64,000 nt of DNA from Candidatus Latescibacterota bacterium (lineage in GTDB: Bacteria; Latescibacterota; CBDCVA01): positions 1,035,442 to 1,099,441 of the forward strand of contig CBDCVA010000002.1 of NCBI GenBank assembly GCA_965222935.1. Reading direction: 5' to 3'. The position numbers were made by a program, and so were the translations under genes. How positions within the stretch are numbered: position 1 is the first letter of the stretch; every line of letters begins with the position of its first letter. Below, one piece after another: positions 39,223-43,969 of this stretch. The notes beneath the pieces were generated by a model that saw nothing but the letters and a program-made list of their open reading frames with translations, was not told the DNA's origin and made no database searches.

Positions 39223-39442
39223 TCCGTTCCGTGTCACTGGAAAGTAGTCATGCTATTCGTACGGTACAACATCTCATGGGCTATAGTGATGTACGGACGC
39301 CCATGGGGAATGCGGGAGTTCGTAGTACAAGATATCAATGGACACCGCATGCGCATCGGACACGTTGATGAGTCCATCGCAGACTACAGCGGGTTCGCGG
39401 GTCCAGAACGCGGATCCAAAGGGGCTGAGGGGGAAACCGGTC

Positions 39443-41122
39443 ATGAGAATCGAGCTATCCGAGGAGCACGTGGCTGCCGTCGGGCGGCGCCGCAGGATCA
39501 TCAACCACTACGATCACAGTGCGAACACCTTCGCCTTCGGGGATTTCGATCTGGACCAGGTGGTGAAGACCAAGTTCGAATTCACCGACCATGAGGGCAA
39601 CCAGATCGACAGCATCTGGTGGGACTGGGGCGGGAGCAATCGGGTCTGGTATCCCAGCCACATTCTACCTCAGTTGGATTCCCCCCAGTTCCAAAGGTGG
39701 TTTGAGGCCGGAATGGATCCGGTGCGCGTGTTCCTGGAGGCGACCAAGGAGCGGGGGCGTGAGGCCTTCTACACCTACCGGATCGACGGCAGCGATAACC
39801 AAGTCCCCGGGAAGACCGCAACCGTTCCGATGAAAGAGGCGCACCCCGAGTGGCTGGTTGACTGGAACCCGGGTGGGGAGCCGAATCGGGGGCATCCCTG
39901 GGATCCAGACGTCAATGGGTTCTGGAACTTCGCTATTCCGGAGGTGCGAGCGTATAAGCTCAGCATCCTGCGTGAGCTGGCGGAGAACTATGACTTCGAC
40001 GGCATCAGCCTGGATTTCGCCAGGACGCCCTGCCTCTTACCATACGGTCGGAAGTGGGAACACAACGGTGCGCTCACGGAGTTCATGCGCAGCGTCCGTG
40101 CCATGCTCCTGGAGGTCGCCGAGAAACGTGGGCGGCCGTTTCTTCTGGCAGCTCGGGTGCCGGAGAATCTGCTCGGCTGCCACTTCGACGGCATGGACGT
40201 CGAGACCTGGGCGCGGGAGCGGCTGGTGGACCTCTTCGTGCTGGGCGTTCGGGCGGTCGATGTGGACATCGCGGCATTTCGCCGTATCACGGCCGGGACG
40301 CATATCAAGCTCTATCCCTGCCACGACGACTACCACGCCACCGACGGTTACATGTACGCGCCGATCGAGGTGCTGCGGGGTATCGCCGCCAACTGGTGGC
40401 AGCAGGAAGCCGACGGCATCACGGTCTTCAACTTCACAAACGTCAGCCTGGAAACCCTGCGCAGTGTGGGACTGATACCGGGCCAAGGGCGCAGTTTTGA
40501 ATATGCTCGCGCGGACTGGGAGGGAGCCCGGCAGACGCTGGAAGAGATCGGCGATCTCCAGACGCTTCGGCACAAGGACAAAGTCTTCGTCGTCGAGCGC
40601 CGCGCCGGTGGGCACCCGGTGAACATCGGCTACCCGGAGGAAAGGCGGGTGCAGCACTGGATGTACTCCAACTCGAACGTGCTTGCGCCGCTACCGACGG
40701 CGCTGGCGGGCGACGGCTTCGAGACGCTCCTGACCGTGGCCGTGGGCGACGACGTGAACGCTGAGGCCGAGCACATCGATGAGCTCACACTGCGGGTCCT
40801 GCTCTCGGACCCCTCCGCGAAAGACCTGTCCGGAGAAGCGCGCATCGAAGCGGGCCTGATCCGGCCTGCCCCGTATCCCAACAAGGAGGACCTTCGCACC
40901 CTCCCGATGGCCAGAGGCACGCTGGAGCACCTGGAGATCCGGCTCAATGGCGCCCTTTTGGCGCCGTCTTCGGTGGAAGAAGGATGGCTCGTGTTCAGTG
41001 CGTCACCGCAACAGTTTGCGGTGGGCGAGAACCTGGTGGGGTTGCGCGTGCTCGAGCGGCCGCCGATAGTCAGAGACGCAATCTCGGTGGAAAAGCTGGA
41101 AGTGCACGTGAAGTACCTGTAG
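39443..41122 (+). CDS. GHL10/DUF187-like putative glycoside hydrolase (TIM barrel), tandem copy 1
   Basis: ...DFDGISLDFARTPCLLPYGRKWEH... matches the GHL10 DG(I/V)..D..R.P box; near-identical to copy 2 at nucleotide level. Confidence 0.5.
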   Translation: MRIELSEEHVAAVGRRRRIINHYDHSANTFAFGDFDLDQVVKTKFEFTDHEGNQIDSIWWDWGGSNRVWYPSHILPQLDSPQFQRWFEAGMDPVRVFLEATKERGREAFYTYRIDGSDNQVPGKTATVPMKEAHPEWLVDWNPGGEPNRGHPWDPDVNGFWNFAIPEVRAYKLSILRELAENYDFDGISLDFARTPCLLPYGRKWEHNGALTEFMRSVRAMLLEVAEKRGRPFLLAARVPENLLGCHFDGMDVETWARERLVDLFVLGVRAVDVDIAAFRRITAGTHIKLYPCHDDYHATDGYMYAPIEVLRGIAANWWQQEADGITVFNFTNVSLETLRSVGLIPGQGRSFEYARADWEGARQTLEEIGDLQTLRHKDKVFVVERRAGGHPVNIGYPEERRVQHWMYSNSNVLAPLPTALAGDGFETLLTVAVGDDVNAEAEHIDELTLRVLLSDPSAKDLSGEARIEAGLIRPAPYPNKEDLRTLPMARGTLEHLEIRLNGALLAPSSVEEGWLVFSASPQQFAVGENLVGLRVLERPPIVRDAISVEKLEVHVKYL

Positions 41123-41207
41123 ACCGTCAGTGAAAATGGGACACATTTAGGGGTTGGAGAACCCGAGAGTATGAGGGGATGGCGTGAGCTCCTGAGCTGA
41201 GGGTAGA

Positions 41208-41810: not shown

Positions 41811-41952
41811 GGTGCGCGCCGCGTAAAGTCAAGTTGATAATTCCCACGGGGAAGGGGGTCAGGGATGAGCAGGCGACGTCATGGTGCTGAACAGACTATG
41901 GGTAAGCTGCGGGAGGGCAAGCGGTCGAGGTTCACGCGGTAAGGAGGCGGGA

Positions 41953-43632
41953 ATGGGCATCGAGCTATCCGAGGAACACGTGGCGGCCGCGGAGCGGCGC
42001 CGCAGGATCATCAACCACTACGATCACGGTTCGGACACCTTCGCCTTCGAGGATTTCGATCTGGACCAGGTGGTGAAGACCAAGTTCGAGTTCACCGACC
42101 ATGAGGGGAACCAGACCGACAGCATCTGGTGGGACTGGAGTGAGGGCAATCTGGCTTGCTATCCCAGCGAAATCGCTCCTCAGGTCGATTTTCCGCAGTA
42201 CAAAAAATGGTTCGAGGCTGGGATCGACCCGGTGCGCGTGTTCCTGGAGGCGACCAAGGAGCGGGGCCTTGAGGTCTTCTACACCTACCGGATCAACGGC
42301 GGCGACAACGATGTCCAAGGGACGATCGCAACCGTTCCGATGAAAGAAGCGCACCCTGAGTGGCTGATCGACTGGAACCCGGGTGGGGAGCCGATTCGGG
42401 GGATTCCCTGGAATCCAGACGCCAACGGGTACTGGAACTTCGCCATCCCGGAGGTGCGAGCGTATAAGCTCAGCATCCTGCGTGAGCTAGCGGAGAACTA
42501 TGACTTCGACGGCATCAGCCTGGATTTCGCCAGGACGCCCTGCCTCTTACCACACGGCCGGAAGTGGGAACACCACGGTGCGCTCACGGAGTTCATGCGC
42601 AGCGTCCGTGCCATGCTCCTGGAGGTCGCCGAGAAACGTGGGCGGCCGTTTCTTCTGGCAGCTCGGGTGCCGGAGAATCTGCCCGGCTGCCACTTCGACG
42701 GCATGGACGTCGAGACCTGGGCGCGGGAGCGGCTGGTGGACCTCTTCGTGCTGGGCATTCGGACGGTCGATGTGGACATCGCGGCATTTCGCCGTATCAC
42801 GGCCGGGACGCACATCGGGCTCTATCCCTGCCACGACGACTACCACGCCACCGACGGTTACAAGTACGCGCCGATCGAGGTGCTGCGGGGTATCGCGGCC
42901 AACTGGTGGCAGCAGGGAGCCGACGGCATCACGGTGTTCAACTTCAACAGCGTCAGCCTGGAGACCCTGCGCAGTGTGGGACTGATACCGGGCCAAGGGC
43001 GCAGTTTTGAACATGCTCGCGCGGACTGGGAGGGAGCCCGGCAGACGATGGAAGAGATCGGCGATCCCCAGACGCTTCGGCACAAGGACAAAGTCTTCGT
43101 CGTCGAGCGCCGCGCCGGTGGGCTCCCGGTGAACATCGGCTACCCGGAGCAAAGATGGGTGCAGCACTGGATGTACTTCAACTCGAACGTGCTTGCGCCG
43201 CTACCGACGGCGCTGGCGGGCGACGGCTTCGAGACGCTCCTGACCGTGGCCGTGGGCGACGACGTGAACGCTGAGGCCGAGCACATCGATGAGCTCACAC
43301 TGCGGGTCCTGCTCTCCGACCCCTCCGCGGAAGACCTGCCCGAAGAAGCGCGCATCGAAGCGGGCCTGATCCGGCCTGCCCCGTATCCCAACAAGGAGGA
43401 TCTGCTCACCCTCCCGATTTCTAAAGGCACGCTGGAGCACCTGGAGATCCGGCTCAATGGCGCCCTTTTGGCGCCGTCTTCGGTGGAAGAAGGATGGCTC
43501 GTGTTCAGTGCGTCACCGCAACAGTTTGCGGTGGGCGAGAACCTGGTGGGGTTGCGCGTGCTCGAGCGGCCGCCGATAGTCAGAGACGCAATCTCGGTGG
43601 AAAAGCTGGAAGTGCACGTGAAGTACCTGTAG
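41953..43632 (+). CDS. GHL10/DUF187-like putative glycoside hydrolase, tandem copy 2
   Basis: Near-identical paralogue of 39443..41122 (same DFDGISLDFARTPCLLPHGRKWEH box). Confidence 0.5.
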   Translation: MGIELSEEHVAAAERRRRIINHYDHGSDTFAFEDFDLDQVVKTKFEFTDHEGNQTDSIWWDWSEGNLACYPSEIAPQVDFPQYKKWFEAGIDPVRVFLEATKERGLEVFYTYRINGGDNDVQGTIATVPMKEAHPEWLIDWNPGGEPIRGIPWNPDANGYWNFAIPEVRAYKLSILRELAENYDFDGISLDFARTPCLLPHGRKWEHHGALTEFMRSVRAMLLEVAEKRGRPFLLAARVPENLPGCHFDGMDVETWARERLVDLFVLGIRTVDVDIAAFRRITAGTHIGLYPCHDDYHATDGYKYAPIEVLRGIAANWWQQGADGITVFNFNSVSLETLRSVGLIPGQGRSFEHARADWEGARQTMEEIGDPQTLRHKDKVFVVERRAGGLPVNIGYPEQRWVQHWMYFNSNVLAPLPTALAGDGFETLLTVAVGDDVNAEAEHIDELTLRVLLSDPSAEDLPEEARIEAGLIRPAPYPNKEDLLTLPISKGTLEHLEIRLNGALLAPSSVEEGWLVFSASPQQFAVGENLVGLRVLERPPIVRDAISVEKLEVHVKYL

Positions 43633-43969
43633 ACCGTCAGTGAAAATGGGACACATTTAGGGGTTGGAGAACCCGAGAGTATGAGGGGATGGCGTGAGCT
43701 CCTGAGCTGAGGGTAGATTACCCTCGAGAAAGGAGCAGATGCGGCCTGAAGACTAACATTACACATTGTACAATCACTCGGGGCAGGTCAGTCGCTACAA
43801 CGCGGCCACCGCGCTGGCGCATACCGAGCACCGGCTGCTTGCCGATGGCGCCGCGACCCGCAGACTACAGCGAGTTCGCGGGTCCAGAACGCGGATCCAA
43901 AGCCGTGTGAGGACAGTGGAACGCTCGAGCGCTTCGACCGTTGGCCCAAGCATAAGCATCATACAGAAC

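Follow-up and report, generated by a model that had tools for sequence, protein, structure and literature searches.

The 64,000-nucleotide stretch of a Candidatus Latescibacterota genome that we analysed (hereafter the window) carries, at positions 39223-45084, an immobile mosaic accessory islet lying between two core genes of an uncultured high-GC bacterium. Its central part consists of two head-to-tail copies of a gene resembling GHL10 and GH156 glycoside hydrolases, each followed by the same end of a defective insertion sequence (IS) of the IS1595 family. The history that we consider probable is a segmental duplication of the gene-plus-IS unit, together with a microhomology-mediated illegitimate joining to the chromosome that duplicated 40-44 bp of the target, and a gene conversion between the copies that continues today. 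An earlier note on this DNA, made from the sequence alone, had described an IS element that duplicated a cargo gene; the tandem duplication is real, but a role of the IS in duplicating or moving the gene cannot be shown, because an 8-bp target duplication is lacking, no right inverted repeat can be recognised and the outer junctions lie inside truncated genes.

Two tandem copies of the gene-plus-IS unit

The window was compared with four other contigs, L001, L004, L098 and L099, all five assembled from long reads and belonging to samples ERZ25067264 and ERZ25072076. L001 is a 4.2-Mb contig at 27x coverage and is 97.8% identical to the window; coverage is low in some of the supporting contigs (2x and 6x, L004 being at 6x). 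Contigs L002 and L097, which are one other organism of the same community sampled twice (96.7% identical to each other), hold the closest homologue of the gene beyond the locus, P0002/P0254, at about 91% amino-acid and 93% nucleotide identity. In a scan of genome contigs the host species had no close relative, the best match reaching 54% identity. The parts of the block, in window coordinates, are the following:

39378-39421, A, left copy of a 44-bp direct repeat (repeat search; 98% identity, 1 mismatch, spacing 4481 bp)
39422-39442, plus strand, foreign 5' flank of copy 1: 3' bases of an amidohydrolase gene, its TGA stop and intergenic bases, as upstream of the homologue in L002 and L097
39443-41122, plus strand, GHL10/GH156-like gene copy 1, 559 aa, intact (Pfam GHL10, 29.1 bits)
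41123-41153, 31-bp 3' flank of the gene, common to both copies and to L004 up to the right end of the L004 IS
about 41154-41845, minus strand, defective IS1595-family element (Pfam, NCBIfam and 83% identity to the transposase P0122)
41154-41273, degenerate right end of this element
41274-41810, truncated transposase homology of this element, within an open reading frame (ORF) at 41208-41810
41823-41845, intact left inverted repeat, GGGAATTATCAACTTGACTTTAC, set by comparison with a 2937-bp multicopy relative
41846-41952, plus strand, spacer of 107 bp, of unknown origin, separating the left end of the IS from copy 2
41953-43632, plus strand, GHL10/GH156-like gene copy 2, 559 aa, intact (Pfam GHL10, 36.7 bits)
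43633-43862, second 31-bp flank, then 199 bp of the IS from its right end up to transposase residue 153
43859-43902, A', right copy of the 44-bp direct repeat

The two units, 39443-41352 and 41953-43862, align locally without a gap and are identical at 1806 of 1910 positions (94.6%). The ATG of each coding sequence is the exact start of the homology, and each 1910-bp unit is made of the gene, its 31-bp flank and 199 bp from the right end of the defective element. Both units had been called near-identical in the earlier note, a description that fits only their 3' part: in successive 100-bp steps identity is 0.89, 0.92, 0.77, 0.87 and 0.88 across the first 500 bp (77-92%), 0.93-0.99 in the middle and 1.00 across the final 410 bp. 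The segment 43633-43862 is 100% identical to 41123-41352 and ends at a CGCA microhomology with A'. As had been noticed, transposase sequence persists at the end of each unit, the final 79 bp (41274-41352 and 43784-43862) encoding residues 153-179 in tblastn with the full-length P0122. A flanking repeat given earlier as 40 bp does recur after copy 2, its length being 44 bp, and A and A' are identical in strain L098.

The repeat period is 2510 bp in the window, L001 and L098, and the gene order of L099 matches. In L004 the copies are also tandem, and a larger intervening element widens their spacing. Head-to-tail direct repeats with a constant period, reproduced across independent assemblies, are what a tandem segmental duplication shows. 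The block does not have the structure of a compound (composite) transposon, since no IS lies upstream of copy 1 and the downstream IS copy is a 199-bp fragment. Because the layout is common to five long-read contigs from two samples, it is neither an assembly artefact nor a chance pattern, and the two copies supposed earlier are genuine.

The surroundings of P0002/P0254 point to the source of the gene. In L002 and L097 this homologue belongs to a conserved operon, CN_hydrolase - Amidohydro_2 - GHL10 - DinB, whose homology to copy 1 begins at 39421, 22 bp before the ATG (window 39421-39442 against L002 9979-10000, 95% by blastn; L097 7979-9673 matches window 39421-41115). As this homology includes the TGA of the amidohydrolase gene, copy 1 was cut from such an operon. 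Upstream of copy 2 stands the 107-bp spacer, which has no match in any fetched locus, its last 8 bp excepted, and which holds a strong AAGGAGG ribosome-binding site 5 nt before the ATG. Along the gene the resemblances form a mosaic: over its first 40 bp copy 1 agrees with L002, at positions 164-500 it is unlike both copy 2 and L002, positions 500-1470 are 95-99% alike among both copies and L002, and the final 200 bp are identical between the copies and about 79% identical to L002.

Gene conversion between the copies is patchy, bidirectional and ongoing. In a site comparison covering four strains and eight gene copies, copy 1 and copy 2 have fixed differences at 71 sites, all within the first 1250 bp; copy 1 has the copy-2 state at 24-138 in L004 and at 1198-1454 in L001 and L098, copy 2 has the copy-1 state at 1467-1472 in L098 and L004, and at position 1729 a variant private to the window is present in both of its copies. 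When the window is compared with L001 over 39000-45200, copy 2, the low-GC relic upstream of the block and the ankyrin-repeat gene downstream of it are almost identical, whereas copy 1 (about 30 differing sites) and the core flanks differ by 1-2%, a pattern suggesting that part of the islet was recently exchanged between strains.

All eight gene copies are intact. The ratio of nonsynonymous to synonymous divergence (dN/dS) between copy 1 and copy 2 is 0.55 (0.38-0.69 by region), and dS is 0.29 in codons 1-167, 0.05 in mid-gene and then 0. Judging from these values the copies are functional paralogues under somewhat relaxed purifying selection, and positive selection is ruled out by a dN/dS of 0.4-0.7. 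We regard them as mosaic paralogues shaped by gene conversion and imported allele segments, and not as the outcome of a recent clean duplication.

Such a mosaic could also have arisen if two different GHL10 alleles had been acquired independently beside the same IS and conversion had later homogenised their 3' ends. The unrelated 5' flanks (22 bp of L097-type operon in one copy, the 107-bp spacer in the other), the difference in dS between codons 1-167 and mid-gene, the stretch of copy 1 at 164-500 that is unlike copy 2 and the L002 allele, and a conversion that is demonstrably active would all agree with this. However, the junction of gene, 31-bp flank and IS right end is identical in both copies, up to the cut in the copy 2 IS, and to produce it conversion would need homology beyond the junction on both sides. 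We find two independent acquisitions doubtful, and continue with a single duplicated segment.

Junctions of the block and the low-GC patch around it

Base composition sets the block apart from what surrounds it. The core genes on both sides have 65% GC, 39223-39421 has 53%, the two genes 63%, the IS 58% and 43903-45084 51%. It looks as if the two low-GC pieces once formed a single, older patch of foreign DNA, which the 4437-bp block has split. The earlier note had seen a single fossil integrative or IS block in the whole region; the recombinase relic that it included belongs to this separate low-GC remnant, which the 63%-GC block divides. The patch comprises:

39237-39305, plus strand, relic of tyrosine-recombinase box II, nearest to that of integron integrases, LESSHAIRTVQHLMGYSDVRTPM, ending just before the position of the catalytic tyrosine
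39298-39421, plus strand, C-terminal relic of a VOC (glyoxalase/bleomycin-resistance) gene in another frame, PWGMREFVVQDINGHRMRIGH...
43903-45084, plus strand, low-GC (51%) rest of the older foreign patch with an ankyrin-repeat gene (43916 or 43970 to 45031)

On the right, the transposase breaks off at residue 153 and A' follows, the two overlapping in CGCA, which is common to 41349-41352, A and A'; on the left, A and the operon fragment meet at a single shared G. Microhomology of 1-4 bp with no 8-bp target duplication points to entry by illegitimate recombination, and not to transposition or att junctions. In the reconstructed uninterrupted sequence the VOC frame would run on through A' to a TGA at 43906-43908, which fits a relic, sequence A and ankyrin gene that were once contiguous, with A duplicated on insertion.

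From these elements the following history can be proposed. The low-GC relic, composed of the recombinase box II and VOC C-terminal fragments, sequence A and the ankyrin gene, would have been there first, and would next have been split at A by the 4437-bp block of 58-63% GC. This block would bring two head-to-tail GHL10/GH156-like paralogues, each trailed by 31 bp and by the right end of an IS1595 element that has an internal deletion; the IS remnant, with one inverted repeat and a stub made of zinc ribbon, helix-turn-helix (HTH) and one-third of the DDE domain, would together with the 107 bp between the copies account for the 2510-bp period. Gene, flank and IS would have been duplicated as a segment, by unequal exchange between IS copies or through an illegitimate junction at 41952/41953. 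The block would have been joined to the chromosome by microhomology-mediated illegitimate recombination or template switching, duplicating 40-44 bp of the target. Both genes would have been retained as functional paralogues, with 5' thirds that diverged, in part by import of allele segments, and 3' ends homogenised by conversion.

Two known processes resemble this history in part. As in IS-associated tandem gene duplication or amplification, which works by unequal exchange between directly repeated IS copies (compound-transposon amplification is an example), one IS segment closes both head-to-tail units, gene and IS together make up the period and the copies were later homogenised by conversion; the locus differs in that its single near-complete IS remnant is defective, no IS lies upstream of copy 1, the outer junctions are illegitimate and the number of copies is stable at two in the five contigs. 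With homology-facilitated illegitimate recombination and microhomology-mediated template switching it shares junctions with 1-4 bp of microhomology that cut through genes and adjoin stretches homologous to the allele of the other organism. A flanking duplication of 44 bp is non-standard for either of these processes, and the mechanism is one that we infer.

Several observations weigh against the proposed history. A 44-bp target duplication is unusual for an illegitimate insertion, the regions upstream of the copies are unrelated and the first 41 bp of copy 2 are 17% divergent. In L004 a different decayed element lies between the copies, and either this or the version in the window may be ancestral. 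The order of events is read only from composition and reading frame, since an exact-pattern scan of metagenome contigs from JGI found no empty site, that is, relic, A and ankyrin gene without the block; the same kind of scan found no copy of A, and an exact look-up of the ankyrin protein returned this locus only. There is a slight chance that the 44-bp duplication records an insertion route not described before. Nevertheless, we see the locus as a well-documented but ordinary IS-associated tandem duplication of a horizontally acquired gene in a decayed foreign patch. It offers a clean multi-strain example of a foreign carbohydrate-active gene that would have been captured, duplicated beside a dead IS and then subjected to divergence and conversion in an uncultured community, of use to population-genomic studies of gene conversion; the stakes are modest and current understanding is not challenged.

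The relic upstream of A had been compared with the C-terminal box of tyrosine recombinases. That comparison stands as far as box II is concerned: the AIRTVQHLMGYSDVRTPM frame matches the integron-integrase models TIGR02249 (E 0.0012) and PRK15417 (E 0.01), and in tblastn it matches the IntI1 of at least 5000 plasmid records, with E 0.03-0.2. Its Smith-Waterman score against IntI1 is 65, against 20.4 +/- 3.8 for shuffled sequences (0 of 3000 reach it; z = 11.8), with DNA up to 39305 contributing, and along IRTVQxLxGxSDVxTxM it agrees with IntI1 at 12 of 17 positions. Searches of Pfam, PHROGs and PDB gave no match. Unlike an integron integrase, the relic has about 23 residues and is without the catalytic tyrosine, the RHR residues and the IntI-specific insertion, its homology ending at ...TPM, immediately before the position of IYTHV. 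Upstream of 39237 there is no recombinase, and the core gene ends at 39222.

The VOC relic has a match to TioX in PDB (3itw, E 0.019) and tblastn matches to bleomycin-resistance/VOC genes; it scores 75 against 22.5 +/- 4.1 for shuffles (0 of 3000), all from DNA from 39298 on, with no signal upstream. A homologue search with the VOC-frame peptide gave no candidates, and a PHROGs tape-measure match of this peptide was spurious. In segment-wise shuffle tests neither signal enters the DNA of the other, and therefore two gene relics are fused here. We also considered whether the recombinase relic might be the C-terminus of IntI with 8 codons deleted, and rejected this: the supposed 'GNAGVRS' remnant is weak (z = 3.1) and, according to the same segment-wise tests, is a frame-shifted shadow of the VOC motif PWGMREFVV. 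At the other end of the patch, the ankyrin gene matches Pfam Ank_2 (E 7e-41), and 43903-45084 is the same in L001 as in the window (100% identity), against a 2.2% difference in the core flanks. A 69%-identical ankyrin paralogue in another genome, P0003, is ringed by four ankyrin-repeat genes (L003 2164-9974 and 12274-12912), one of them fused to a sigma-70 domain.

Repeats of about 44 bp are typical of att sites. The block might then be a fossil site-specific integrative element, with A and A' as att-type core repeats and a circular GHL10-IS-GHL10 molecule that integrated, by CIME-like accretion, beside an element encoding the tyrosine recombinase since decayed. The recombinase relic is in fact statistically real, its frame stops at 39366-39368, 10 bp before A, and the 44-bp repeats are perfect in L098. 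Against this, one junction interrupts the transposase at residue 153 and the other the amidohydrolase gene, 8 bp ahead of the stop codon; with a microhomology of only 1-4 bp at these truncated genes, an attP in the circle would itself need two illegitimate events. The window has no tRNA or tmRNA gene and no known RNA (Rfam at gathering scores and ARAGORN over its whole length), attC-like R''...R' pairs (RYYYAAC...GTTRRRY) are absent from either strand of the reconstructed relic, and the recombinase has lost its catalytic tyrosine and lies outside the repeats. An integrative element is an unlikely explanation, and the tie between recombinase relic and duplication that the earlier note had supposed is supported by no evidence. 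The lack of attC-like pairs rules out an integron cassette as well; the window differs from an integron in having no attI, attC or cassette array. Duplication of a segment and its illegitimate joining remain the reading that we prefer.

The IS1595-family remnant and its relatives

Between the two copies an IS1595-family transposase with zinc ribbon and HTH, and with no DDE domain, had been proposed. Family and zinc ribbon are supported: the ORF matches Zn_ribbon_IS1595 (PF12760) at residues 16-58 (E 2.9e-11) and the NCBIfam model transpos_IS1595 (NF033547) with 99.9 bits (cutoff 75) over model positions 1-111 of 215. The HTH is marginal (HTH_24, 21.4 bits against a gathering score of 21.9), and the DDE domain is present in part, DDE_Tnp_IS1595 being matched at positions 1-56 of 153 only (E 1.4e-11). 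The ORF is 83% identical to the full-length 302-aa P0122 over residues 1-179 only, and since the homology ends at residue 179, two-thirds of the catalytic domain are gone. As for inverted repeats, which the earlier note had suggested looking for, the left one was found at 41823-41845, and it has no right partner within 6 mismatches in the window. The sequences flanking the IS, CATTTAGG and ACGGGGAA, differ, so no 8-bp target duplication is seen. The remnant cannot transpose and is now only a portable block of homology.

The architecture of zinc ribbon, HTH and DDE_Tnp_IS1595 is that of the IS1595 (ISXO2-like) family, and the terminal repeat GGGAATTATC...GACTTT resembles those of active relatives; the remnant differs from the family in its shortened DDE domain, unrecognisable right repeat and missing 8-bp duplication, and is non-autonomous. 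A relative at 80% identity, P0126, belongs to an element of 2937 bp found in five identical copies, with the inverted repeat GGGATTTATCCGCTTGACTTTCC, 23-bp inverted repeats at its ends, AT-rich target duplications of 8 bp and, in convergent orientation, a passenger ORF of 431 aa without a Pfam domain. The 8-bp duplications are present at the active relatives L006-L011, and the element is apparently an active IS that carries a passenger. The gene of the closest full-length transposase, P0122 (L005 4001-6129), overlaps at its end with a gene in the same orientation whose 406-aa product has N6_N4_Mtase and HNH domains and which may be another passenger. Outside the window, the elements compared are:

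L006-L009 and L011, 3935-6871, the 2937-bp IS1595-family element, part of which is also in L010
L004, 10356-12660 (reverse-complement 7800-10104), the segment that replaces part of the IS

In L004, 2305 bp stand in place of window 41154-41455, with boundaries that are sharp against 98%-identical flanks. The L004 element has 2697 bp, a GC content of about 52% and inverted repeats at both ends; the left one is the same as in the window and the right one, GGGAATTATCCATTTAAGTTTCC (reverse-complement 7798-7820), is located 29 bp past the stop of gene 1. It contains a decayed full-length transposase frame with stop codons and few frameshifts, as well as a second, also decayed, transposase N-terminus, and its longest ORF is of at most 84 aa. 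The 2.3-kb non-coding insert has no match in Rfam, which argues against a group II intron in it.

The 2937-bp element invites the idea that the GHL10 gene was the convergent passenger of an IS1595 transposon, transposed with it as a unit and was then duplicated and left to decay. Gene and transposase are indeed convergent in the window, as they are in the 80%-identical relatives with their five identical copies, and the methyltransferase-HNH gene after P0122 gives a further parallel. The right repeat of L004, however, sits between gene and transposase, 29 bp after the stop, and therefore leaves the gene outside the IS; there are no 8-bp target duplications, two-thirds of the DDE domain are missing, and the left boundary of copy 1 is a fragment of a chromosomal operon and not an inverted repeat. 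The passenger protein of the 2937-bp element left no trace by tblastn in the window or in L004. We consider this origin quite improbable next to an illegitimate joining of the duplicated segment.

The transposase stub keeps only a zinc ribbon, an HTH and the start of a DDE domain and is oriented divergently to copy 2, for which reason one may imagine that it was domesticated and, binding DNA in the manner of InsA, regulates the GHL10/GH156-like gene downstream. The stub is open in four of the five contigs, and the 142 bp between it and copy 2 hold the left inverted repeat, its putative own binding site; still, we would give such a regulator very little credence. A promoter and terminator scan of 39100-45150 found nothing. 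Finally, a single gene copy falsely expanded to two during assembly can be dismissed as extremely improbable: tandem repeats are a known source of misassembly and some contigs have 2x and 6x coverage, but the 71 fixed copy-specific differences, the distinct flanks of the copies and the five long-read contigs from two samples, the 27x 4.2-Mb contig among them, speak against it.

The encoded protein and other repeats of the window

The assignment of both genes to GHL10 was upheld by profile search, at 29.1 and 36.7 bits against a gathering score of 27.9 for PF02638, with each copy covering only part of the model. The two proteins are 89% identical. Homologues number 662, and most of the 120 listed have a precomputed PF02638 assignment. 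A relationship to the inverting exosialidase EnvSia156 of family GH156 (PDB 6rzd) is detected with copy 2 as a single sequence (E 8e-19) and with a profile of 36 family members (E 6.5e-33, about 300 residues); the same profile matches Cwp19 (PDB 5oq2) at 9e-13.

The roles of EnvSia156 residues have been described (PMC6811678). In the profile alignment to 6rzd the carboxylate-binding triad Arg129, Arg202 and Asn346 corresponds to the invariant R113, R194 and N330, and with Arg246, which aligns with R238, the whole set is invariant or nearly so in the family of the duplicated gene. Differences from GH156, whose catalytic pair is Asp14 and His134, are that His134 is replaced by a nearly invariant Asp118 and that Phe278 and Trp279 are missing. 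The region of Asp14 is unaligned with the family profile, the invariant D24 being a candidate for its counterpart. We predict a cytoplasmic GHL10/GH156-like glycoside hydrolase, for which one may reasonably suppose an activity on acidic sugars that could be sialidase-like.

The best match of the core gene immediately upstream of the islet (38293-39222) is N-acetylneuraminate lyase, with 216.6 bits, under the cutoff of 281. This lyase-like gene and the duplicated genes with their GH156 triad may form a functional pairing. Having kept the sialic-acid-binding triad of GH156 next to such a neighbour, the family is a reasonable candidate for biochemical testing of sialidase-like activity. Relatives of the gene are common in metagenome-assembled genomes of Poribacteria, Latescibacterota, Acidobacteriota, Chloroflexota and Planctomycetota; these lineages, mostly of the kind known as sponge symbionts, together with the ankyrin genes suggest a sponge-associated community.

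Elsewhere in the window there is a family of REP-like intergenic hairpins, whose stem CCCCTCCC/GGGAGGGG surrounds the 18-nt unit GCGGAAGCTCCGCTGGCA, present once or twice. Within 16 kb the family has at least 10 copies, some in each orientation, and it has no match in Rfam. A second repeated module of about 75-90 nt, GCGCGGGTGGGAAGATCGTCATTTTCGGGGTGAAAGTCAGTGCTGG...GTGACACTAA, is usually found beside these hairpins, perhaps as a shared regulatory or mobile unit. Their positions are:

21124-21204, 23281-23348, 25234-25301, 32466-32515 and 33477-33538, REP-like hairpins
33662-33711, 34403-34482, 35487-35572, 36899-36984 and 36996-37045, further REP-like hairpins
21212-21302, 23350-23406, 24840-24906 and 25308-25398, minus strand, second repeated module
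32412-32485 and 34327-34400, plus strand, second repeated module

The window also contains other tandem paralogue pairs with 75-78% identity, at 15021-16185, 57159-58688 and 60316-62116, and among them one stretch of 68 nt is 99% identical between adjacent genes.

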